A DNA stretch of 20,000 bases from an uncultured virus (IMG/VR IMGVR_UViG_3300024496_000014). Its lineage: Duplodnaviria; Heunggongvirae; Uroviricota; Caudoviricetes. Positions 386-11,113 of this stretch are shown in pieces. A program made the position numbers and the translations under genes. The notes under the pieces were generated by a model that worked only from the letters and a program-made list of their open reading frames with translations, searched no databases and was not told the DNA's origin. Positions within the stretch are counted from its first letter, which is position 1. The number at the start of each line of letters is the position of its first letter. The stretch lies in IMG/VR virus record IMGVR_UViG_3300024496_000014, one strand, 5' to 3'.

Positions 386-1903
386 TTAAGCAGTTCCTAA
401 TTGTTTTTGTAAGAAGCCCATGATACGCTTTTTACTTTTCTTATCTAACTTAGCTAACTCTGATTTAACTTCTGCATATAGTGTAGCTGTTTTTTTACCA
501 TTGGCGCCACCTTGGCCACCTTGATCGGCACCGCCCTGACCGGGTGGTGGTAGTTTCATTTGACTATAAACTTGTGTAACAATACCTGCATCAATGCCCT
601 GATCTTGTAAAAACTTTGCTAGTTCTTCTGAATCTGTAGGAGCACCTGCTTTTTGCCAAGCAGAATTTAACTTGTCTGCCGTGACCTGTGTGGTCATGTT
701 ATGACCTTTTGTCTTGGCCCAATCAACTGCTTTGCCTGCTCCAGCTTTAACCTTGTCCATAAAGCCAGCTTCTGATAACACACGATTAAACACTAGATAT
801 ACTTGACCTTCACTTAAAGGTCTAGTTTGAATATAATAACTTTCTTGTTTTGGTTGTTTGCTGCCTGTACCAGCTGCAACTGCGCCTTGCGCAGCCGCGC
901 CTAAGAATTTAAACACTTCTTTAGCACCTTCGGCAGCAGATTTTAACATTGCTCGCTTGTCTGCTGTGGCAGCAATCTGAGCAATATACTCTGGATTATT
1001 AAATTTATCATCAATCATGCCCTGAAGAACTTGCCATACCTTGTCGCTTTGAGCATAATCTCCTGCTTGCCAAGCAGAAGTAGCATCCATGAATAACTCT
1101 TTAGCATCTGCAATATCTGCTGGTTGTCCTACTAGTCCTTTAATTTCAAAGTTAGCAGAACGTGATCCTAACTCTCCCCCAACTTCATCAAAGATTTGAG
1201 TCATGTTTAATCTTCTAGCACCAGGGAATAGATTATCTTTGATAATATCAACTCCGCCACTGAGTGCATCGCCAATAAGTTCAAAGGTCTTACCAGCAAT
1301 AAAACCATAGGCTGCTGTTTTAATACCTTTGCCAATGGTAGTTGAAAGTTTTTCGCCTTTGATTAGTTCAGACGAATTACGAATAATAGCACCTGCAATA
1401 GCGCCACCTACTGGGCCACCTGCAAGAGCTGCTAGAGTGGTAAGCACACCAATAATCGCTGCTGACTTACCTGGATTTTCTTTCATCCAAGTTCCCCATC
1501 CAGTTAGAGTTTTATCTAGCTCAGGAAACTTAGCACCAACTTTAGCCTTTAAATCTTCAAACTTTTGGTCCATGTTCTTAACAGGCGTAGTATCCTGTAG
1601 CCATTTACCAACTTTATTAACTACTTCATCTGCTTTTTTAGCAACATCGATGCCTTTGCCCAGCATTGTTCTATTACCACCACCTGCACTTACACTTTGC
1701 TCTACAGATCCAAATACCTGTTTAACCTGTTCAGGGCTTAGACTAGCTTCGATAAGAGGTAGCATTTCATTATAAATGCCTTCAACAATTCTGCGTTGTT
1801 CCTTATTAAGACCGTCACAGCTTTCCTCTAATATTAATCGTGAGTTGTGCATATGTCTTTCGACAAGTAACTGATGATTTTCTAATAATGTTGATATTTT
1901 CAT
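386..1903 (-). CDS. 505-aa hypothetical late protein, probable internal virion/ejected protein with a hydrophobic Gly-rich segment
   Basis: Long ORF; AATAAATA late-promoter motif just upstream; several (L/I)xE motifs; segment SAAIIGVLTTLAALAGGPVGGAIAGAII. The CDS is secure, the function is inferred. Confidence 0.7.
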   Translation of the reverse strand: MKISTLLENHQLLVERHMHNSRLILEESCDGLNKEQRRIVEGIYNEMLPLIEASLSPEQVKQVFGSVEQSVSAGGGNRTMLGKGIDVAKKADEVVNKVGKWLQDTTPVKNMDQKFEDLKAKVGAKFPELDKTLTGWGTWMKENPGKSAAIIGVLTTLAALAGGPVGGAIAGAIIRNSSELIKGEKLSTTIGKGIKTAAYGFIAGKTFELIGDALSGGVDIIKDNLFPGARRLNMTQIFDEVGGELGSRSANFEIKGLVGQPADIADAKELFMDATSAWQAGDYAQSDKVWQVLQGMIDDKFNNPEYIAQIAATADKRAMLKSAAEGAKEVFKFLGAAAQGAVAAGTGSKQPKQESYYIQTRPLSEGQVYLVFNRVLSEAGFMDKVKAGAGKAVDWAKTKGHNMTTQVTADKLNSAWQKAGAPTDSEELAKFLQDQGIDAGIVTQVYSQMKLPPPGQGGADQGGQGGANGKKTATLYAEVKSELAKLDKKSKKRIMGFLQKQLGTA

Positions 1904-1929
1904 AAAAGACTCAAAATTGATATACTACT

Positions 1930-1937
1930 TATTTATT
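1930..1937 (-). promoter_or_regulatory. T4-like late promoter (AATAAATA)
   Basis: Matches T4 TATAAATA at 7/8 positions; the same ATAAATA core precedes the genes at 7368 and 13106; a gp55-like sigma is encoded in the window. Confidence 0.7.
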
Positions 1938-1960
1938 GAAAAGCGAGCTAACGCTCGCTT
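1937..1960 (-). terminator. Hairpin, possible intrinsic terminator for the minus-strand transcript
   Basis: Perfect 8-bp stem aagcgagc (1941-1948)/gctcgctt (1953-1960) with a 4-nt loop, ending in a short U-run on the minus strand. The U-tract is weak. Confidence 0.4.
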
Positions 1961-2044
1961 GCTTTATCGCTTCGCTCAAAGCACTTTTCTTTTTTTTAAT
2001 TATTTCAAAGATGCAGTTGAAATATATTTTGCGCGAAGCGCAAA

Positions 2045-2414
2045 TTTAGCATTATCCAGATCGTTTCAGTCACACTTTGCCCGTTGCCGGGCAAAGAAAA
2101 AACATTATCCGAGTCGAACCATGTCACACAGCAGTAGAGCATTACAGAGGCGGTTGTCCGGTACCTCGAGCTCCGTCTTTACACAACGGCGGTATACATT
2201 AATCTGCTATCACTAATGTACACGTGGGGTTTTTCTCCCCTCATTTTACCTTTACATATCCTTTTCAAACAACTAAATCGCAGGTTTTAAGCGATCTTCA
2301 TCCATAAATGGGTAGTAGTTGAGTACCATTGCGGCATGGAATTCCGTCCCTGCGACCACGATTGACCAGGTTTAGAGCGCATGAAGTTAAGGCCTGCGCT
2401 AGCCAAAAACCGCT
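2045..2414 (-). ncRNA. Candidate large structured non-coding RNA, family not recognised (boundaries approximate)
   Basis: No credible ORF and richer in GC than typical spacers here. Many stems: 2075-2096 (9 bp, GCAA tetraloop on minus), 2192-2203/2212-2223 (12 bp with two G-U on minus), nested stems ~2136-2174, 2173-2189, 2226-2240, 2277-2295, 2376-2400. Confidence 0.6.
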
Positions 2415-2849
2415 TTATTTTGCCTTTTTATGTTCTTCTAGGCGTTGCCTTAGTATGTTTGAACCGCCTACTCTGACGTTTATAATGCCATTATAATATT
2501 CGTCAGTTTCTAAAACTCTGCGTTCAAACTGCTCTCTTGCCTCTAAATAGGACATTTCTGCCTTGGATTTGCAAAGATAAAGTATTTCTCTAGTGAAGTT
2601 TCCGGGACCTAATGCTTGGACGTCTGCGTTTAACCTATCAGAAGAACCCCAGTAATCGCGCCAATCGCTTTCAACTACGGATCTACGTTTAAGTTTTTTG
2701 CCTTTGAGTGGTGGTTTAGTACGTTTAAATTGTGCTAATTTCTTGCCTATGTACTTCTGCCCGGTTTGTGTGTTCGTGATGAGATAAACAAAGCCAATAT
2801 AGCCTTCTGGTATTTCGTTTATTGGTTGATTTTGATACGTCCATTGCAC
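2415..2849 (-). CDS. Stand-alone GIY-YIG family endonuclease (Seg-like catalytic domain), GTG start
   Basis: GFVYLITN...KYIGKK motif pair, YWGSS, FTREIL, LEAREQ (candidate catalytic Glu), YYN. Confidence 0.85.
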   Translation of the reverse strand: MQWTYQNQPINEIPEGYIGFVYLITNTQTGQKYIGKKLAQFKRTKPPLKGKKLKRRSVVESDWRDYWGSSDRLNADVQALGPGNFTREILYLCKSKAEMSYLEAREQFERRVLETDEYYNGIINVRVGGSNILRQRLEEHKKAK

Positions 2850-3080
2850 TCACTTAGTTATTTTAGGCGGTCTTCCAACCATGCCTTTTCTGGCTAACTT
2901 TCGTTGTTCGCGTTTTTCTTGTATCTCAACTCGCCTTTTTGATGCCTCGTTGCGTATTTCTGATAGCCAATATCGTGCCTTAATGCCTGCTTCATCTGAG
3001 CCTTTGTATTCAAATCGTTCTTGCCACTTAAAATATTCCTGAAAAGCAGCAATCATACGATCGTGCGATTCTGTTGTCAT
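2850..3080 (-). CDS. Small basic helical protein, resembles the histone H1-like Hc1 family
   Basis: FEYKGSDEAGIKARYWLSEIRNEASKRRVEIQ resembles the KGNKAAGTRARKAL.E....R pattern of Hc1-like proteins; basic C-terminal tail; ATGA overlap with the upstream gene. Confidence 0.5.
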   Translation of the reverse strand: MTTESHDRMIAAFQEYFKWQERFEYKGSDEAGIKARYWLSEIRNEASKRRVEIQEKREQRKLARKGMVGRPPKITK

Positions 3081-3631
3081 AACAAAGGAGGGCCTTCAAA
3101 GAATTGAATAAGTGTTTTTCTAGTGCCTTTGGTTACTGGATCAACTTTATGAGGAACCCAGCTAGGAAAAACTAACAATGTTCCTGGCAATCTAAATTCT
3201 TCAATTACATGAGGACCGTTGAAAAATAAACTTATATCACCGCCCTCATACGGTTCGTCAGATAAGTTTAGTAATGCTGTTAATTTAATATCCTTAATAC
3301 CATCTCTTCTCCCGTCGGTGTGCCAATCATATTCGCCGTTGGTTTTAGAATCGTAGGTATTGTAACTTAATATTGACTCGTACCCAATTGCGTCAAGATG
3401 AAATCTAAAAGCAAGGTTGTTAATAACACCAATTGATTCATAAAATTTTTCTAATTCGGGGGATATAAATTTTCTGTTGATAAATTTTACATCGGCAGTT
3501 TTAGTTGCTCCATCTGCAGGAACATCTTTTACAGAATCGTCTCTATTATAATGTAATAGAATTAAAGTCCTGAGTTCTTCACACATTTCTGGTGTATAAA
3601 GTTCTTTAACATAATAAAAGTCATAAATCAT
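3077..3631 (-). CDS. 2OG-Fe(II) oxygenase (PKHD/prolyl-hydroxylase-like)
   Basis: HxD (WHTDG), KLTALLNLSD..YEGG, VFPSWVPHKVDPVTKGTR (distal His and 2OG-binding Arg). Confidence 0.9.
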   Translation of the reverse strand: MIYDFYYVKELYTPEMCEELRTLILLHYNRDDSVKDVPADGATKTADVKFINRKFISPELEKFYESIGVINNLAFRFHLDAIGYESILSYNTYDSKTNGEYDWHTDGRRDGIKDIKLTALLNLSDEPYEGGDISLFFNGPHVIEEFRLPGTLLVFPSWVPHKVDPVTKGTRKTLIQFFEGPPLL

Positions 3632-5406
3632 TCTATAATCTCCACATCGTTGCTGTAACTGGTAAATCCGTTTTCTTTAATAACTTTTAACACATGATTT
3701 ACTCGATTTGTTAGATCATCTCTGTGAGAAATTAAGAAAACATTTTTATTTCTTTCTCTAGTCATCTTCTTAAGTACCGCAATACTTGATTCTACTCCGC
3801 TGGCATCCATGCCGCTGTCTACAAGCTCATCAATAAACAACAGGTTGATAGGATGATAAAGATTTTCCCACACATCTCGGAACGCCCAAGATAGAGATAA
3901 AATCAATCTGTTGCGTTCACCTCGACTTAAATTATCAAAATCTAGGTCCTGGCCTAATTGAGTAATAATAACACTAAGATCATTTTGAAATTCTACAATA
4001 TGAGGCAATCCTATTCTATCTAGATAATGAGTTAATCGTTGATTTAAGAATGCTAAGTTTTGATCGATAATACGTTTACGTACAAAACTATCTTTATTTG
4101 TTAAAAGTTTATGTAAAAACTCCTGATGATCTTTAACTCTTACAAGTTCGTTTAGGTTATTCCAGTCAATTTCTTGAACAGCAGTATTTTTTAATTCTAA
4201 GATTTGATCATCATAAGGGTTTTCTTCTGCTTCTTTAATAGTAGCATCTCTTTCTAACCCATCTAATGTGTTTTTATGATTAAGTGCTTCTTCTAAATTG
4301 TCATAAGTTACTTTTGGACAAGCAGTTAGCTCACCTAATAATGCCATTGCTTCGTTAAGAGTTGATAGTTCTTCTAAGTGTTCGTTAATAGAACCTTTAC
4401 TTTCTTCAACTTGTTGAGCTTTTGCTACAAGCATTTCTTCATGTTTGTCATCATGTAACTCTTGACCACAAGCATGGCATTTATGATCTGCAAGACTAAT
4501 AAGCTCTTTTTCTAATTTAGAAAGGACTTTTTGTTCTTTTTCTAATGCCGCTGTTTGTTTAGCAATTAAAGAATTAAGGTTATCTTTTTCTTTTTTGTTT
4601 TTATTCCATTCAACTAATGCTCGTTGATTTGATATTTCTTCTTCAATGTCAATTTGCATTAAACGATCAATACTTTTAAGTATATTTTCAAGAGAGGACT
4701 CTTTTTGATCGTTCCACATTTTTTGTTTACGCTCTAACGCTTCAATGCTTTGTTGAATGCGTTCATTACTAGCTTTAATTGTTTCTATTTTAGTATTTTC
4801 TGAAGTAATAGCATCTTTTGTTTGTTTGATTTGTTCTTTTAAATTTTCTGCTTTTTCTGATAAAAGTGTAATACCTAGTAATTGTTCAATAACGCTTCTT
4901 TGATCAGCAGCCTTCATTGATAAGAACGGTTCAGTATAAGTGTTCAACGCTAAAATGTGTTTAAACATTTCGTGACTCATACCAAATACATCTTCAATTG
5001 CTTTTTGTGTTTCTCGACTATCGCCTTGAGATTCGTCAAGGTCCTGTAATTCTTGTTCTTGACCGTTAATGCTAAATTTTAACAAGTTTGGTTTTCTACC
5101 ACGTTCAATGTGATATTCAACGCCGTGTTTTTCAAAACTAATTGTGACTAACATTCCCTTTTGATTAATCTTGTTGATAAGGTTGTCACGTTTAATATTA
5201 GTCAGGGCTTGACCGTAGATCGCATAACTCAAGCCATTGATGATAGTTGTTTTGCCCGTACCGTTGCGAGCCCCAGAATCATCACCTCCTAGATCTAGAT
5301 TTTCACCTAAGACTAGAGTTAATTGACCACGGTCAAAATCGATGGCTTGAGTTTGATTACCCACGCTCATGAAATTTCTTACGGTTAGATTCTTAATTTT
5401 AATCAT
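3628..5406 (-). CDS. gp46: Recombination endonuclease ATPase subunit, T4 gp46/Rad50/SbcC-like
   Basis: Walker A NGTGKTT, long coiled coil with CHAC zinc hook, signature LSRGE, Walker B LLFIDE, D-loop SGMD, ISH switch; directly follows gp47. Confidence 0.95.
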   Translation of the reverse strand: MIKIKNLTVRNFMSVGNQTQAIDFDRGQLTLVLGENLDLGGDDSGARNGTGKTTIINGLSYAIYGQALTNIKRDNLINKINQKGMLVTISFEKHGVEYHIERGRKPNLLKFSINGQEQELQDLDESQGDSRETQKAIEDVFGMSHEMFKHILALNTYTEPFLSMKAADQRSVIEQLLGITLLSEKAENLKEQIKQTKDAITSENTKIETIKASNERIQQSIEALERKQKMWNDQKESSLENILKSIDRLMQIDIEEEISNQRALVEWNKNKKEKDNLNSLIAKQTAALEKEQKVLSKLEKELISLADHKCHACGQELHDDKHEEMLVAKAQQVEESKGSINEHLEELSTLNEAMALLGELTACPKVTYDNLEEALNHKNTLDGLERDATIKEAEENPYDDQILELKNTAVQEIDWNNLNELVRVKDHQEFLHKLLTNKDSFVRKRIIDQNLAFLNQRLTHYLDRIGLPHIVEFQNDLSVIITQLGQDLDFDNLSRGERNRLILSLSWAFRDVWENLYHPINLLFIDELVDSGMDASGVESSIAVLKKMTRERNKNVFLISHRDDLTNRVNHVLKVIKENGFTSYSNDVEIIE

Positions 5407-6413
5407 AGTTCTTTATAAATCTCTAATAGGAGTCCTTTATCGTATGTGTCGCTTTCAATAGCATTGATTTGATTGATAACAATGGTATCAACACTTTCAA
5501 ATTCAATATCGATAGGCGAAGCACTCGATTCAACTTCTACCTTTTCTGGAATAAGCATTAATTCTCGCAAATCGTATTGCGGCATGAATTGCTCTTTAAT
5601 GAAATTTGCTTCTTCAAATGTAATAGGTAAGTCAATAGTAACACGACAATGCATTTTTGGTCTTAACAATGCGTCGGGAGTATCAATTATTTGACTTAGC
5701 TTGTAGGTACGATATACTGGTTGATTAGCCCAAGTTTTGTATTGGGGTTTGCCTCCCCACTCTAATAACATCATACCTCGATCGTCATCACCTGCATCGG
5801 CGTAATTGTGCGGAAATGCATTACCAATATACACTATGTTTCCTGTAGCTTGGCGTTTGTGAAAATGCCCGCTAAACACATAATCTTGATTTACAAAATG
5901 GTTTCTTTGCAACTGGCCATGATCGGGCATTTGAATCATAGCATTCATGTAGAAGCTTGGTAATTCTAAATGTCCAAAAATATATTTGCTTTTAATTTTT
6001 GGAATATCTTTCCATTCGTCTCCTACTAACCAAGGGAGTATTGTTACATTTCCATCTGTAAAGGGTTCTTTAATAGGAGTTACATTTGGAAACAATCGCA
6101 TAAATTCAATTGAATTGATTTCTCGTTTGTCTTTATAAAACAAATCGTGATTGCCTAAAATAAAATAGACTTTTTCAAAAGATGCGTTTAATCGTTCTAG
6201 GTTAGACACCGTATAATTCATAGTGCTAACATCTGTAGTTGATCGATTGTGATGCCAGTCGCCTAAGAAGATGCAAGTTTCTGCACCTTCTTCTTTAGCA
6301 GTATCACAAAACCATTTAACAAATTCTTCACAATCAATGTTGTGAGTTCTGCTTCCTGATTTTAATCCAAAGTGTATATCCGTAAAACATGCGGCTTTTT
6401 TAAATAGATTCAT
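5403..6413 (-). CDS. gp47: Recombination endonuclease nuclease subunit, T4 gp47/Mre11/SbcD-like
   Basis: Metallophosphoesterase motifs DIHFG, LGDWHH, GNHD, GHLE, SGHFH. Confidence 0.95.
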   Translation of the reverse strand: MNLFKKAACFTDIHFGLKSGSRTHNIDCEEFVKWFCDTAKEEGAETCIFLGDWHHNRSTTDVSTMNYTVSNLERLNASFEKVYFILGNHDLFYKDKREINSIEFMRLFPNVTPIKEPFTDGNVTILPWLVGDEWKDIPKIKSKYIFGHLELPSFYMNAMIQMPDHGQLQRNHFVNQDYVFSGHFHKRQATGNIVYIGNAFPHNYADAGDDDRGMMLLEWGGKPQYKTWANQPVYRTYKLSQIIDTPDALLRPKMHCRVTIDLPITFEEANFIKEQFMPQYDLRELMLIPEKVEVESSASPIDIEFESVDTIVINQINAIESDTYDKGLLLEIYKEL

Positions 6414-6419
6414 ATGACG

Positions 6420-6448
6420 AGTTTAATATAATTTTTATTAAAGGTCAA
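6420..6448 (-). promoter_or_regulatory. Sigma70-type promoter TTGACC-N17-TAAACT for the gp47 operon
   Basis: -35 at 6448-6443, 17-nt spacer, -10 at 6425-6420, 6 nt before the ATG at 6413. Confidence 0.65.
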
Positions 6449-7293
6449 TCCCAATCATTACCATTATCGATAGTAACAGGAGCGGTAGCAGGACCACTAC
6501 CACTACCCCATTGACGAGTCCAACTTGGATTCATACCGTTCATTTCCAGTATGTCGTCTCTGATGTTCTGGTTACGTTTTTCAATGTTAATGATCCGCAC
6601 GAATGAATTAGTGACAGCAGCAGTATAATAAGCAAAAGGATTATCGGATTTGCTTTCATCAAATTGTAGTCCTATCTGTGTTAGCTGTAAAATAGCCTGC
6701 CCTTTCATTTCGTCATTATAGGTATATCCTCTAACGTTGCCTCTAGTCGCATATCGGTCACATAATTTTAAAAACATTCGAGCTAGATTACTAGTCATTT
6801 GGCCGTGGTCTTTGCTAAATGCTCCGGTGTTAATATCACCTTTCCAGTGGCTTTTTACAACACATATTAGATTACCGTTGGTATCAAATTTCCAATGTTG
6901 AAAGGGCGGAAAATTTACTTTTTCATGACCGTCGCTGGTATTTTTAACGGTCTTTTTTCTTCCTGGAGCAAGAGGAATATGTTCAAAGGTCATAACTCTA
7001 AAGACTACATCATTCTTGTCAATTTTTTTATAGTCTATTTCAAATTCTTTTGCGGGAATTTTTTTACCTTGCGCTAACATTGCTGCTTCGTGGTTAATTT
7101 TTGCTAACCTAGAAGCTCTGTTTCTTTTTGCTTCGGCAATTGTCCTGATATTAATTTTGGACAAGTTTGGTACAATCATATCATACTCTAAAAATGCTTT
7201 ATCTGTGCATGAGCAGTATGTATTTTTGCTTAAATGTATCTCTCTTAGTAAGTCTTTGTTTGTTAGGTACTTAATTTTAGGTACGGTATTCAT
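6445..7293 (-). CDS. gp55: Late transcription sigma factor, T4 gp55-like
   Basis: N-terminal YLTNKDLLREI; C-terminal RGYTYNDEM...QFDESKSDNPFAYYT...F.R.I..EK; T4-like 55-47-46 order; SD AGGGAG. Confidence 0.85.
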   Translation of the reverse strand: MNTVPKIKYLTNKDLLREIHLSKNTYCSCTDKAFLEYDMIVPNLSKINIRTIAEAKRNRASRLAKINHEAAMLAQGKKIPAKEFEIDYKKIDKNDVVFRVMTFEHIPLAPGRKKTVKNTSDGHEKVNFPPFQHWKFDTNGNLICVVKSHWKGDINTGAFSKDHGQMTSNLARMFLKLCDRYATRGNVRGYTYNDEMKGQAILQLTQIGLQFDESKSDNPFAYYTAAVTNSFVRIINIEKRNQNIRDDILEMNGMNPSWTRQWGSGSGPATAPVTIDNGNDWD

Positions 7294-7367: not shown

Positions 7368-8501
7368 ATGCCATTATCGCTTAATCCATTAGCCCAATTA
7401 GTTAACAATGTTTCTCAAAGTATTAGCGGAGCCGCTAACCAAGCAGGAGCCGGCTTAAACAACATGACCGCTTCTTTATCTAAAACAAATTTAGATTCTG
7501 TAACTTCTCGTCTTTCCGGCGGATTAGGCAGCGGATTAAATGGAGTTACAGCGGGTGTTGGTAATGCAATTGACCAAGGAATGGCAGGCGTTAAAGGATT
7601 AACAGGCTCAATTGGAGGCGCCGGCCTTCCAGCATTAGGCGGCATAACAGGACAAGCACAAAACTTAGTATCTAAAGTTGGTACGGGTGTTGGTGCTATT
7701 AGTAACGTTACTTCTGACATTGCTACCTCTCTTAATAAATTAGGCGGTGGAAATATTGCTGGCGGACTACTTGGTGTTGCAGGTGCTATTTCCAAAGCCG
7801 CTGGACAATTAAACAATATTCTAAGTCTTGCTAGAGGAATAAACTTACCGTCAAATGCAGAGTTATTTCAAACACGAGGCGCGGTAGTATCAATGACACC
7901 AGTGCCAGGAAATGATTGGCGTGTTAGAATCAACTGCAATTGGGAATTGTTTAACTCTCCTTTGTTTGACGCAACTCTTAAGGAAACCGGCGGACTCGCT
8001 TGGCCATACTTGCCAAACATCACGGTATCTTCAAAGGCAAACTACAGCCAATTAGATCCTGTGCATAATATATATCCATTCCAGGCCTATAAGAGTAGTG
8101 CTATTGAAGACATTCAAATTAGTGGAGAGTTTTCAGTTGAAACTGAAAAAGATGCTTACTACTGGATAGCTGCCACCACTTGGTTAAGAACCGTTACTAA
8201 AATGTTTTATGGTACAGGACCAAACGTTGGTAATCCGCCTATTATTTGTCAACTAACCGGCTATGGAAGTAATGTATTCAACACCGTTCCTGTAGTAATC
8301 AAAGCAACAAGTTTTGATTTTAAAGAAGATGTTCAATACATTAAATGTCAAACAGATACAATGTCGCAACCAACATGGGTACCGACACTAAGTACTATCT
8401 CGGTGACGGTATCGCCAATTTATAACAGAGCAAGACTACGTCAATTTAGTTTAGAAGATTTTGCTTCTGGCAATACAGCAAACACAACAGGATTCCTATA
8501 A
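7368..8501 (+). CDS. Baseplate/tail-tube initiator-like protein (gp48/gp54-type) with a Gly/Ala-rich N-terminus
   Basis: C-terminal tube-like pattern (PYLPNITVSSKANY...IQISGEF...GNPPIICQLTGYG...VPVVIK); lies directly before the gp53-like gene. Confidence 0.55.
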   Translation: MPLSLNPLAQLVNNVSQSISGAANQAGAGLNNMTASLSKTNLDSVTSRLSGGLGSGLNGVTAGVGNAIDQGMAGVKGLTGSIGGAGLPALGGITGQAQNLVSKVGTGVGAISNVTSDIATSLNKLGGGNIAGGLLGVAGAISKAAGQLNNILSLARGINLPSNAELFQTRGAVVSMTPVPGNDWRVRINCNWELFNSPLFDATLKETGGLAWPYLPNITVSSKANYSQLDPVHNIYPFQAYKSSAIEDIQISGEFSVETEKDAYYWIAATTWLRTVTKMFYGTGPNVGNPPIICQLTGYGSNVFNTVPVVIKATSFDFKEDVQYIKCQTDTMSQPTWVPTLSTISVTVSPIYNRARLRQFSLEDFASGNTANTTGFL

Positions 8502-8502
8502 C

Positions 8503-8802
8503 ATGGCAAAGTATAGACAAAGTTCACCTTATTTTCTTACTAAACAAAACAATTTGTATCTTGAATTGTTGTCTATCAGACCCATTCCTGCAGAGACTGA
8601 TGATTTCAAATACAAAATAGAAAATCAATACAAACACAGACCGGATTTATTGTCCTATGATTTGTATGGAACACCAAAACTATGGTGGGTTTTTGTTCAA
8701 AGAAATATGGATGTTATTAAAGATCCAATATATGATTTTGAACCCGGAACAGAAATTTATCTTCCAAAAAAAAGCAATCTAGAAAGATTTTTAGGAATAT
8801 AA
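8503..8802 (+). CDS. gp53: Baseplate wedge protein, T4 gp53-like (LysM-like)
   Basis: RPDLLSYDLYGTPKLWWVF motif. Start corrected to the ATG at 8503 (MAKYRQ), 1 nt after the upstream TAA. Confidence 0.8.
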   Translation: MAKYRQSSPYFLTKQNNLYLELLSIRPIPAETDDFKYKIENQYKHRPDLLSYDLYGTPKLWWVFVQRNMDVIKDPIYDFEPGTEIYLPKKSNLERFLGI

Positions 8803-8803
8803 T

Positions 8804-11113
8804 ATGGCTTTAGGATTACGAGACATTGGTCAAGTATTTGGTGCAGCATTAACTAAACCAGACGGTACAGGAATCGATCCAACTGCAACAGCATCAAACC
8901 TTGGACTTGGTTTTGCAAAAACTTCATCAGACATAAAGTTAAGTTTATTGCAGGGAAAAACACCTGCAGGAACTGATGCCAGAGCAACTATTAGTGCAGG
9001 TAGCAAAGAAAATATTAAACCTAAACAACGAGGGTTTGCTAATCAGTTAGAACAATTTGCATCATATAATGTTTTATGGACGTTGGCATGTTTAAAACCC
9101 GAGGAAGCAAATAATCCTTACCTATACAGAAATTCTGCATTCGTTGAAAAACAAGTTGTATTTTCGTCTGGCGGAAGATATGATCAGGAAAGAGCAGCAA
9201 CAGCCTACGGAGCCCCTGAATACTTTATTCAAAACTTTTCTATGGATACCTTAATGACAGGTACTCCTGCTACAGGCTCTTCAAATGCTATTAACTTTAC
9301 CTTTGAAATTATAGAACCTTACAGCATGGGATTGTTTTTACAGAGTCTTCAGGTTGCGGCTCTGGCAGCAGGATATCCAAGTTATCTTGAAGAAGCAGTA
9401 TATTGTTTAAAAATGGAATTTGTAGGATTTGATCAAGATATGAAATCCTATGCTTCTATAAAACCAAAATTCTTTTTAATGTTGTTAAAGAAAACAACTT
9501 TTAATGTTACAGAATCTGGAAGCACTTATAAATTTGAAGCCATTGTTTATAATCAAGAAGGATTTTCTGAAACCTACACAGCATTAAAAACTGATATAGC
9601 AATCACAGGAAGTACCGTAAAAGAATTATTAGCAGGCAGAGAAAGAAGTTTAACAACGGTTCTTAATGAGCACGAACAAAAATCTGTTCCTGAATTAAAA
9701 ACGTACCCAGACAAGTACGAAATACATTTTCCAGAAAATTCATTTGATCCAATCCCTGGAGTTGGACCAGACGATGCAGACAACAGAGCAGTAATAAACA
9801 CATCAAATGAACGAGTAATTTCAAAAAGTGCATCTTATGCTAATCCAGAGGACGATCCGGCATTTTTTATTTCAAACGCTATAGGCAATGCAAGTTTTAA
9901 TTTCCAGGCAGACTCAGGAGGAAACTATGTTGCCCCAAAAGCAGAAGATGCATATGACGAAAGCACAGGAAAAGTTAATAGAGATAAAGTTTCAATAAAT
10001 GCAAAAGAAAGAACATTTAACTATGCTCAAAAACAATCAATATTAGAAGTTATTACACAAGCCATTGAAGAATCCGATTATGCAGCTAAGGCATTAAAAG
10101 AATCTAATATTGATCCAACTGGTATGATTAATTGGTTTAGAATTGATGTTCAAACACAGCTTTTGAATTGGGATCCTAAATTTAAAAAATATTCAAAACG
10201 TATTATTTTTAGAGTAATGCCATACAAAATTCATAATTCGGTTTTTACAAATCCTAATGCAGTCCCTTTAGGATATGACCAGTTAGAAGAACAAATAGTT
10301 AAACAATACAATTACATCTATACAGGTACAAATAATGATTTATTAAGATTTGATATACAAATTAATAATTCTTTTTATACCGCAGTTGCATCAAATAGAA
10401 TTGAAGATGCAGGCCGCCTTGCAAATAAAGATTTACAAACATCAGGCGATCCGCAACAAAACAAAGCAGAAGTTGAAAAAGGATCGGGAGGAGTAACAGC
10501 AGCTAAGAGTCCTACAGGAAGTAGGCCGGTTGCACAGGATGTAAATGCTATTAAACTACCGTTTGGCGGTTCTGGAAATTTAACTGATGAACAAGTAGTT
10601 GCTAATAATTTTCACAAAGCATTCCTTGAAAGTTCTCAAGCTGAAATGGTAAAAATTTCAGCAGAAATTATTGGAGATCCTTACTGGATGGTAGATAGCG
10701 GCATGGGCGGATATTTTGCAGGCCCAGGAGCCACAGATCAAATTACCGAAGACGGGACAGCAAACTATGAAGCAGGTGATACATTCATCTATATGAGATT
10801 TAGAACACCGATTGAACCAATGGAAGAAAAAGGAACTTATTTGTTTGTTGGAGAATCAGATAGTCCCTTTAGCGGCATTTATAAAGTTATTAAATGTCAA
10901 AATAATTTTTCTGAAGGATTGTTTAAACAAACACTAGAGTGTATTAGAATGCCTCTACAACCTAACGATCTTGATGACAAAGTTGATCCAGATAAACAAA
11001 GTACTCTTATGTACAATACAGATAAAGTTAAACCAGAATCGTCATCTCCTGTTGACACTGATGATGCCGGTGATGAGGGTGAACCGTCAGATCCACCTAC
11101 ATATTTTGCTTGA
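8804..11113 (+). CDS. Baseplate hub protein, gp27/VgrG-N-like (769 aa)
   Basis: C-terminal IIGDPYW...FSGIYKVIKCQNNFSEGLFKQTLECIR, typical of hub proteins; lies between gp53 and gp5. Confidence 0.6.
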   Translation: MALGLRDIGQVFGAALTKPDGTGIDPTATASNLGLGFAKTSSDIKLSLLQGKTPAGTDARATISAGSKENIKPKQRGFANQLEQFASYNVLWTLACLKPEEANNPYLYRNSAFVEKQVVFSSGGRYDQERAATAYGAPEYFIQNFSMDTLMTGTPATGSSNAINFTFEIIEPYSMGLFLQSLQVAALAAGYPSYLEEAVYCLKMEFVGFDQDMKSYASIKPKFFLMLLKKTTFNVTESGSTYKFEAIVYNQEGFSETYTALKTDIAITGSTVKELLAGRERSLTTVLNEHEQKSVPELKTYPDKYEIHFPENSFDPIPGVGPDDADNRAVINTSNERVISKSASYANPEDDPAFFISNAIGNASFNFQADSGGNYVAPKAEDAYDESTGKVNRDKVSINAKERTFNYAQKQSILEVITQAIEESDYAAKALKESNIDPTGMINWFRIDVQTQLLNWDPKFKKYSKRIIFRVMPYKIHNSVFTNPNAVPLGYDQLEEQIVKQYNYIYTGTNNDLLRFDIQINNSFYTAVASNRIEDAGRLANKDLQTSGDPQQNKAEVEKGSGGVTAAKSPTGSRPVAQDVNAIKLPFGGSGNLTDEQVVANNFHKAFLESSQAEMVKISAEIIGDPYWMVDSGMGGYFAGPGATDQITEDGTANYEAGDTFIYMRFRTPIEPMEEKGTYLFVGESDSPFSGIYKVIKCQNNFSEGLFKQTLECIRMPLQPNDLDDKVDPDKQSTLMYNTDKVKPESSSPVDTDDAGDEGEPSDPPTYFA

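Follow-up and report, generated by a model that had tools for sequence, protein, structure and literature searches.

Does the small GIY-YIG nuclease gene of an uncultured freshwater phage form a system with the structured RNA that follows it, or is the RNA a gene in its own right? The question is raised by a 20,000-nucleotide (nt) stretch of DNA, analysed as a whole and referred to here as the window, which is part of an 86-kb IMG/VR virus record (IMGVR_UViG_3300024496_000014) from a T4-like phage. A nuclease gene of 144 amino acids (aa) lies on the minus strand at 2415-2849 (GTG start, TAA stop at 2417-2415; Pfam PF19835, SegE-type GIY-YIG), and the open reading frame (ORF) downstream of it on the same strand, which encodes 505 aa and is not part of the module, occupies 386-1903. 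A preliminary description of this locus had drawn attention to about 510 non-coding nt after the nuclease stop codon, set among gene junctions that are otherwise short. Both observations hold: the gap at 1904-2414 spans 511 nt with no fitting ORF, and the other same-strand junctions of the window measure 0-41 nt, with one exception at 8501-8804. That stretch is the sole other long gap between main ORFs, and a 113-aa ORF (8461-8802) overlaps it. The analysis presented here shows that the gap holds a conserved RNA of about 390 nt that is tightly linked to the nuclease gene in phages. As bacteria carry the same RNA with no such nuclease beside it, the RNA probably is a gene in its own right and not the guide of the nuclease.

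Comparison with Rfam by cmscan gave a match to RF01718, the Polynucleobacter-1 motif, at 2404-2267 (here and below, RNA features of the window lie on the minus strand). The match scores 100.2 bits against a gathering score of 37 (E 5.5e-21), spans model positions 1-141 of 141 and corresponds to a 5' domain with helices P1-P6. Matches above the gathering score were also obtained in the related loci L207, L034, L050 and L233, and no other Rfam model came near its gathering score in window positions 1850-2900 at E up to 10. The preliminary description had not recognized the RNA as a known family and had held that a match to one would remove its novelty; with the 5' 138 nt assigned to RF01718, part of that novelty is therefore gone. 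Two-thirds of the RNA lie outside the Rfam model and comprise a pseudoknotted centre and a duplicated 3' module, such that the catalogued motif makes up just the opening third of an RNA measuring about 390-440 nt. Passages in PMC2864571 (Weinberg et al. 2010) describe the motif from 16 representatives in Burkholderiales and in freshwater or estuary metagenomes and rate it a probable RNA, probably cis-regulatory ("cis-reg: y") and of unknown riboswitch status; a full-text literature search for the motif name returned only that paper. The phage RNA shares with it the full model match and the freshwater habitat, but not the position. Whereas a probable cis-regulatory element would be expected in a 5' untranslated region (UTR), the phage motif stands behind a nuclease gene, its distance from the stop codon having a median of 5 nt, and not 5' of a regulated gene.

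The extent of the RNA was established from its relatives. Two independent scans of IMG/VR, one with the invariant 5'-domain core and the other with an invariant box of the 3' part, yielded at least 120 loci each; both required exact cores, and the viral counts given here are therefore samples of conserved members. An nhmmer profile built from the 5'-core set matched 119 of the 120 loci listed for either set and none of 24 chance loci retrieved with a control pattern one N off the 3' box. Since the profile recognizes both sets and not the control loci, the 5' and 3' halves of the RNA belong together. In the window, the profile (374 positions) matches 2408-2036 with an E-value of 1.5e-100. Overall, the RNA is conserved in over 230 viral loci, with 70-89% conservation per 20-nt block over approximately 380 nt after the nuclease stop codon. 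From the profile match, conservation and covariation, the whole structured RNA is placed at about 2414-2025, with its 5' end at or just after the stop codon. The 3' end is uncertain and was put at about 2025 because a UUCG-loop hairpin with a variable stem (2028-2044) is the only terminator-like site; this hairpin is the likely end of the RNA, and by eye its stem varies with compensation in alignments A1 and A2. The structured RNA of about 370-490 nt originally proposed is thus real, at about 390 nt, but its left edge had to be moved approximately 20 nt further, to the UUCG hairpin.

Secondary structure was derived from an alignment of 119 representatives of less than 95% identity by mutual information and pair counting. 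The elements recovered were P1-P6, a pairing between the leader and the P3 loop, the hairpins H7, H8 and H12, the nested helices H10 and H11, and two pseudoknots. A tool-based covariation test was performed on 38 sequences and covered 73 pairs in 13 helices, P3 being left out as poorly aligned there. Paired cells amounted to 96.5%, compared with 83.5 ± 0.4% in shuffles, and changes on both sides were observed for 44 of the 73 pairs (shuffles, 31.0 ± 2.4) and for 349 cells (shuffles, 97 ± 9.5); for each of these measures, none of 500 shuffles was as high. When partners were slid by 1-3 columns, 36-42% of cells were paired and 13-19 pairs changed on both sides. Covariation in related phages, by which the preliminary description had proposed to judge its RNA, therefore lies far above shuffled and slid controls, and the covarying helices include three pseudoknots. 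On its own, the window sequence folds mildly better than shuffles (z -2.1, 1 of 100).

Most of the stems that had been drawn from the single sequence are borne out by covariation. The stem agcgca/tgcgct is P1 (2399-2395 with 2381-2377) and the longer-range pairing caacta/tagttg is P4 (2321-2316 with 2275-2270). In the central domain (2128-2239), the pairs at 2192-2223 form the long hairpin H8 (2223-2212 with 2203-2192), in which 12 of 12 pairs change on both sides; ggagc/gctct is H10 (2174-2170 with 2140-2136; 3 of 5 pairs) and gaggt/gcctc is H11 (2167-2163 with 2151-2147; 1 of 5 pairs). Further elements of this domain are the hairpin H7 (2239-2237 with 2228-2226), also with changes on both sides, and two pseudoknots: PK1, which joins the H8 loop at 2210-2204 to 2134-2128 (7 of 7 pairs), and H9 (2187-2183 with 2157-2153; 3 of 5 pairs). 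A hairpin proposed at 2173-2189 did not survive, its 3' side varying without compensation in A1 and A2 and its 5' side being engaged in H9. The 9-bp stem at 2075-2096 was recovered as H12 (97% paired, 2 pairs changed on both sides), but its GCAA loop, present in the window phage, is not conserved in relatives. At the 5' end, the leader GCGG (2410-2413) is a proposed partner of CCGC (2334-2331) in the loop of P3, with a register that was set by eye for the window. In the 119 sequences, leader columns 3-6 and columns 83-86 are paired in 85-95%, with alternation of GC, AU and UA, and the proposed pairing would be a pseudoknot that begins 1 nt after the nuclease stop codon. The strand had been assigned from G-U pairs, and the relatives agree: two pairs are G-U in 38 of 38 sequences, and many others alternate between GC and GU. 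Because the invariant G-U pairs fit the minus strand only, this is the strand of the RNA.

The 3' end of the RNA is a tandem duplicated module of the order GTGAC, 8-9 nt, a trinucleotide, a 7-mer, a linker and a hairpin. It carries two 13-nt elements that match each other at their variable positions, R1 at 2103-2116 (CGA-CTC-GGATAAT-G) and R2 at 2050-2063 (CGA-TCT-GGATAAT-G), with H12 between them; in the relatives the elements are 47-65 nt apart. The two differ only by CTC versus TCT, a difference that is fixed in phage, marine-type and bacterial copies. The four variable columns are identical between R1 and R2 in 119 of 119 representatives, and 162 of 168 unique RNAs carry the 7-mer as an exact twin, 107 of them sharing the three preceding bases too. 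This identity within each molecule extends to marine-type and bacterial copies, although the 7-mer itself drifts between lineages: phage variants include GGATAAT, AGATAAT, GCATAAT, GGATGAT and AGATGAG, marine-type phages have ACATGAT or ACATGAA, and bacteria have AGCGAAA, ATCGAAA or ACCAAAA. A partner within the RNA was sought and rejected, the best mutual-information partner of each position in the elements being its own twin and all other values being 0.24 or less. Given that twin identity is maintained with no covarying column inside the RNA, the partner must lie outside it; such a signature calls for a factor acting in trans that reads both copies. In the bacterial alignment A6, RNAalifold pairs GAG on the 5' side of P1 (columns 11-13) with the CUC of R1 (columns 406-408). 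This pairing would close the whole RNA and tell R1 from R2; its three pairs are invariant and show no covariation.

Since the viral loci were found through the RNA only, the gene upstream of it provides an unbiased read-out of linkage. After de-duplication, an upstream ORF was in view in 85 loci of the 5'-core set; in 81 of them a GIY-YIG relative abuts the RNA as a same-strand ORF, and in the 3'-box set it does so in 65 of 72. Pooling gave 180 non-identical loci, 111 of them with at least 450 nt of upstream sequence, and the nuclease gene abuts the RNA in 105 of these 111. The distance from the end of the nuclease gene to profile position 1 has a median of 5 nt and ranges from -12 to 57. The usual order in phages is gp46, optional extras, a gene of the small basic protein family c2, the nuclease gene and the RNA, followed by a variable gene on either strand. 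Because the RNA starts right at the nuclease stop codon, the two are almost certainly co-transcribed, as the preliminary description had supposed. Three river metatranscriptome contigs, weak evidence in themselves, bridge the stop codon and the 5' domain of the RNA; being contigs, these assemblies show neither strand nor level. Summed contig depth rises over the nuclease gene and the RNA relative to the flanks; as contigs from related phages accumulate at these positions, nothing is drawn from it. Bins at 1948-2109 had zero cover in three of four runs, which proves nothing.

The RNA is also present in bacteria. When 185,579 species genomes were scanned for the 5' core, 37 stretches were returned, of which about 28 are expected by chance on our own estimate. 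Confirmation by nhmmer was obtained for 19 of the 37; two are tiny contigs of phage type in metagenome-assembled genomes, and the remaining 17 are contigs of bacteria that bear the labels Comamonadaceae, Limnohabitans, Polynucleobacter, Burkholderiales and others. No GIY-YIG relative lies within about 4 kb of the RNA in any of the 17 bacterial loci. The full layout was observed in 9 of 10 bacterial loci aligned or read and consists of a Polynucleobacter-1 domain, a larger centre with an ...ACCGCC box and a 3' module that contains the twin elements. That the bacterial and phage central domains are homologous rests on shared boxes and layout and on partial nhmmer alignments in two loci. A divergent DUF6641 gene stands beside the RNA in 16 of the 17 loci. 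In six, the RNA is followed on its own strand by a gene for a tyrosine recombinase of 188-194 aa, which by Pfam consists entirely of catalytic domain; in three, none is present within about 3.9 kb. Locus L330 has the RNA at about 3560-4060 (minus), the DUF6641 gene at 4249-4683 (plus) and the recombinase gene at 2009-2575 (minus), and the same recombinase arrangement is seen in L298, L309, L313, L318 and L326. In these genomes, which are of freshwater Betaproteobacteria type, the RNA is a full-length relative, and its combination with the DUF6641 gene and the recombinase looks like a small mobile element. The suggestion that c2 and bacterial DUF6641 form one partner family was rejected (hhalign probability 0.04%).

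Phage loci that depart from the usual arrangement likewise show that the RNA and the nuclease are separable. In L207 (1735-2256, plus) and L249 (1669-2235, plus), the nuclease slot is filled by a PD-(D/E)XK endonuclease (PDDEXK_15, PF24608; E 2.5e-29 and 5.6e-30, respectively), the gene ending 5 and 19 nt before the RNA. L207 keeps the usual c2 and gp46 genes upstream; a recent exchange of nucleases at this locus could not be upheld, its nearest relative, with 78% RNA identity, being too distant to show one. No nuclease gene is found upstream of the RNA in L233, L192 and L050, and a relationship between c2 and the winged-helix protein of L050 was dismissed at a BLASTP E-value of 1.1. Five further loci have an extra ORF of 257-341 aa between the GIY-YIG gene and the RNA (L034:2175-2948, L051:2153-2932, L202:1473-2246, L215:616-1641 and L193:2774-3700), one of them methyltransferase-like and the rest without family. 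The nuclease also occurs without the RNA: the complete genomes of Methylophilales phage Melnitz, whose nuclease is 64% identical, and Synechococcus phage S-SRM01 contain no RF01718 match. Exactly one such match is present in a 219-kb relative of the window phage. A blastn search with the 1051-nt region detected no relative in 50,697 GenBank phage records, and neither these nor the 294 nuclease-bearing GenBank phage records include a cultured phage with the module. The preliminary description had tied the coupling of RNA and nuclease to their co-occurrence; the two do occur together in the 105 of 111 phage loci, but each is also found alone.

In the marine-looking loci L015, L023 (about 2430-2790), L020 and L024 (about 2750-3190), the nuclease is 68-77% identical to that of the window and the RNA is strongly diverged, with no Rfam match and a partial nhmmer match or none; the layout of R1, hairpin, R2 and UNCG hairpin is kept. 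The GIY-YIG frame of L024 (2449-2877, plus) contains an in-frame stop and may be a decaying copy or reflect a sequencing error.

The nuclease itself matches PF19835 with 124.6 bits against a cut-off of 25 (E 3.6e-36), over residues 3-123 and profile positions 1-123. An AlphaFold2 model with a predicted local distance difference test score of 86 was compared with known folds, and the best match was the catalytic domain of I-TevI (1ln0; probability 0.97, template-modelling score 0.62, root-mean-square deviation 2.9 over 104 columns), followed by PD-T4-3 and UvrC; the Foldseek E-values are weak, at 0.16 or worse, and a sequence search of the PDB gave nothing relevant. On the model, the protein is confidently predicted to have the GIY-YIG alpha/beta fold. 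Residues Y22, Y33, G35, R87, E103 and N120 are invariant in 47 relatives; all but G35 are candidates for the catalytic Tyr, Tyr, Arg, Glu and Asn. The Lys/Arg-rich insert to which the preliminary description had pointed is not peculiar to this protein. It is a beta-hairpin conserved throughout the family, with a long form in 75 loci and a short form in 28, the window included. The argument from a missing DNA-binding domain is a weak one; T4 endonuclease II is reportedly another GIY-YIG enzyme of comparably small size that stands alone. In PHROG 447 and many GenBank phage records, the family goes by the name "NAD synthetase", whereas Pfam and the predicted fold indicate a GIY-YIG nuclease; the label is a widespread database error and is corrected here.

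The account that we favour, with about as much doubt as confidence, is one of an autonomous large-RNA gene with a co-transcribed, free-standing nuclease gene of Seg-like kind sitting at its 5' edge. The nuclease gene would be one of the free-standing kind inserted between the Hc1-like c2 gene and the RNA gene, with putative homing-type behaviour. Both would be transcribed together and the RNA released or stabilized by its own fold. The RNA would perform a job of its own in phages and in bacterial mobile elements, possibly as a scaffold that displays a single 13-nt recognition element in duplicate for a partner binding twice, and would not guide the nuclease. Phage T4 likewise has its seg and mob genes between conserved genes, segB for example within the tRNA cluster. 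Such a position is seen here too, the nuclease gene lying between c2 and the RNA gene in most loci, and across 49 loci the divergence of the RNA tracks that of gp46 (Spearman 0.50) better than that of the nuclease (0.17). Several observations weigh against this account. Sporadic presence with empty sites, the mark of homing genes, is not what is found: 105 of 111 sites are occupied and three more loci have the gene one ORF away, a very high occupancy for a selfish gene, and the sampled loci include no closely related phages of which one has the nuclease gene and the other lacks it. By tblastn, each of the 294 GenBank phage records with the family, mostly cyanophages, has one copy, a pattern closer to that of a domesticated gene than to that of a sporadic parasite. 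The tight junction, with the first helix at the stop codon, would suit a co-evolved unit. Within one context of 26 loci, nuclease and RNA distances correlate at 0.67; in the same context nuclease, c2 and RNA correlate at 0.67-0.71, and the downstream gene does not. Moreover, three unrelated DNA enzymes without an evident DNA-binding domain, namely the GIY-YIG and PD-(D/E)XK nucleases and the bacterial tyrosine recombinase, stand beside one RNA, which is what an RNA-directed system would look like.

That the RNA and its neighbouring enzyme constitute one ribonucleoprotein is accordingly the main rival account, if on the whole unlikely. The RNA, as scaffold or guide, would confer DNA-site specificity on a GIY-YIG or PD-(D/E)XK nuclease in phages and on the small tyrosine recombinase in bacterial elements, with the twin elements as determinants. 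Linkage of 95% in loci found through the RNA alone would be explained, as would the occurrence in the slot of two nuclease folds that are unrelated yet equally far from the RNA, the catalytic-only recombinase of 188-194 aa downstream of the RNA in six bacterial loci, the very basic and conserved beta-hairpin of the nuclease, and the identity of the twins in 162 of 168 RNAs with no internal covarying partner, which points to one in trans. However, no targets were found in the sequences searched, although one may lie elsewhere, for example in the host. Words of the twin elements gave no matches beyond controls in the 86-kb record, 6 matches against 7 for a control pattern in the 219-kb relative, and no excess in three bacterial genomes or within 8-kb bacterial loci. 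In the flanks of 164 loci, where own variants were compared with those of other loci, only the R2 complement was raised (19 versus 10.4), and this excess appears to reflect a conserved Tyr-Leu-Asp coding motif of gp46 that shows no covariation with the element. Nor do the element variants follow the flanking context, and the recombinase is missing from three bacterial loci. The guide or cofactor role put forward in the preliminary description is not supported: no segment of the RNA matches the flanks or the phage genome beyond controls, the bacterial RNA does without the GIY-YIG nuclease, a PD-(D/E)XK enzyme can take the slot, and phage nucleases occur without the RNA. A more far-reaching version, in which the RNA is the shared programmable specificity subunit of a new RNA-directed DNA enzyme and each twin places one catalytic-only protomer, seems improbable. 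The protomers would be GIY-YIG or PD-(D/E)XK enzymes in freshwater and marine T4-like phages and the 190-aa tyrosine recombinase in islands of freshwater Betaproteobacteria, and the element sequence would set the site that is cut or recombined.

Two further readings were weighed. The RNA could be a cis-acting 3' UTR element of the nuclease transcript, serving as a stabilizer or as a binding site through which the nuclease or the Hc1-like protein holds expression down. The start at the stop codon, where a terminating ribosome would open the leader helix, fits such a role, as do identical twin sites, which could be operators for a dimer-binding protein, and passages in PMC2988022 describe T4 homing endonucleases as tightly controlled via RNA structure and processing. 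We nevertheless regard it as decidedly improbable: about 390 nt with three pseudoknots go far beyond the needs of a stabilizer, the RNA persists in phage loci without the nuclease, and the bacterial RNA stands alone, its neighbour being divergent and its own strand having no ORF upstream. It is still harder to believe that the region acts as DNA, whether as a replication origin, as iteron-like protein sites or as a recombination site. It does reside in mobile elements and in a block of phage replication and recombination genes, and direct repeats that covary by identity are typical of iterons and protein-binding DNA sites. Against this stand the compensatory changes in 44 of 73 base pairs, the invariant G-U pairs, which would be A-C mismatches on the other strand, the covariance-model match to Rfam at 100 bits and, as weak evidence, the presence of the region in contigs from RNA libraries. 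Helical phasing is absent because the spacing of the twins varies from 47 to 65 nt. The reading of an autonomous RNA gene beside a Seg-like nuclease gene is therefore retained.

Other candidates were tried and rejected. A group I intron encoding a GIY-YIG enzyme is contradicted by the lack of any intron model match by cmscan, and the upstream ORF, which runs right up to the nuclease start, leaves no space for a 5' intron half. No tRNA or transfer-messenger RNA was found by ARAGORN. Templates for repeat proteins made by rolling circle are a DRT2-like idea; with the twin elements as its ends, the unit would measure 47-65 nt, and its concatemer is stop-free in 16 of 117 cases in sense and 44 in antisense. 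Type III toxin-antitoxin systems (ToxIN-like) have tandem identical RNA repeats upstream of an endoribonuclease toxin gene, whereas here the RNA is downstream, only 13-nt elements are repeated, in different modules, and the enzyme has a DNA-nuclease fold. A literature search that left subscription journals largely uncovered returned no paper linking a GIY-YIG gene to a structured RNA, no RNA-guided tyrosine recombinase and no mention of DUF6641.

The genes around the module in the window are those of a T4-like phage. A gp55-like late sigma factor gene (6445-7293) is followed, all on the minus strand, by SbcD/gp47-like (5403-6413) and SbcC/gp46-like (3628-5406) genes, a 2-oxoglutarate-Fe(II) oxygenase gene (3077-3631) and the 76-aa ORF of family c2 (2850-3080), whose TGA stop abuts the GTG start of the nuclease gene; baseplate genes come next on the plus strand. 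Proteins of family c2 are small, basic relatives of Hc1, a histone H1-like protein that binds nucleic acids. The family precedes the nuclease in 57 loci as the usual gene just before it. Of 34 members, 10 score as Pfam Hc1 (PF07432), at best with E 9.2e-16; the copy in the window stays below threshold. On the other side, the 505-aa protein has no Pfam or PHROG match. The gene 3' of the RNA varies in family between loci, lies on either strand and begins 250-500 nt past the RF01718 motif; its identity between loci has a median of 0.31 and does not correlate with the module. The spacer after the RNA (1904-2024, minus), common to many loci, contains an A-rich tract, a box GAGCGnnGCGA and a hairpin AAGCGAGCG-TTAG-CTCGCTT (alignment A2 columns 560-640). 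After the hairpin, relatives have a late-promoter-like box for the next gene, TATAAATA, of which the window version is AATAAATA. At about 1935-1985 (minus), many loci share the box GAGCG-nn-AGCGAAA, a short GC hairpin and then this promoter-like box. Judged from its sequence, the stretch looks like a portable terminator and late-promoter cassette placed where gene content changes.

An "orphan" Rfam motif of 2010, filed as a probable 5' regulatory element, thus proves to be the first domain of a pseudoknotted RNA of 390-440 nt, which alters the design of any experiment on Polynucleobacter-1. The RNA is common in uncultured freshwater T4-like phages, with at least 120 loci per scan, and is also carried by freshwater bacterial mobile elements. 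If the partner of the twin elements is DNA, a new class of RNA-directed nuclease or recombinase would be at hand; if it is a protein, the elements would offer a clean natural case of co-evolution of RNA-protein specificity.

Among known systems, GOLLD and ROOL are large ornate RNAs of phages and mobile elements, and the present RNA resembles them in its length of several hundred nt, its many pseudoknotted helices and its habitat. It differs in its twin elements and its tight linkage to a nuclease, and it matches neither by cmscan at E up to 10 (1850-2900). In OMEGA systems, the RuvC/HNH nucleases IscB and TnpB are accompanied by omega RNAs, formerly known as HEARO RNA, which carry a guide taken from the DNA at the end of the element. 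The likeness consists in a large structured RNA directly beside the small nuclease gene of a mobile element. The nuclease folds here are, by contrast, GIY-YIG or PD-(D/E)XK and not RuvC/HNH, no guide match was found in flanks, phage records or bacterial loci, and the RNA occurs without a nuclease, so that the obligate co-occurrence expected of an OMEGA-kind nuclease is not observed. The bridge and seek RNAs of IS110/IS1111, as described in passages of PMC11208158, carry two specificity-bearing elements beside a recombinase, and a structured two-element RNA beside a small DNA recombinase in a bacterial mobile element is also what is seen here. Differences are that the bacterial enzyme here is a tyrosine recombinase and not the DEDD/serine enzyme of IS110, that the phages have a nuclease instead, and that the two elements are identical to each other, with no DNA complementarity found, whereas those of IS110/IS1111 match two different DNAs. 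For the nuclease gene, the comparison is with T4 SegA-G. Passages in PMC2988022 describe 12 free-standing endonuclease genes of T4 in intergenic regions between conserved genes, some of which depend on upstream promoters or carry promoters for downstream genes, and place segB between tRNA genes. The window nuclease differs from the Seg enzymes in its 144-aa length, in having no C-terminal DNA-binding region, and in being near-universal in its group and single-copy. It shares with them the Pfam family of SegE and an intergenic position between conserved genes of a T4-like phage and, like segB, it stands next to a gene for a stable RNA.

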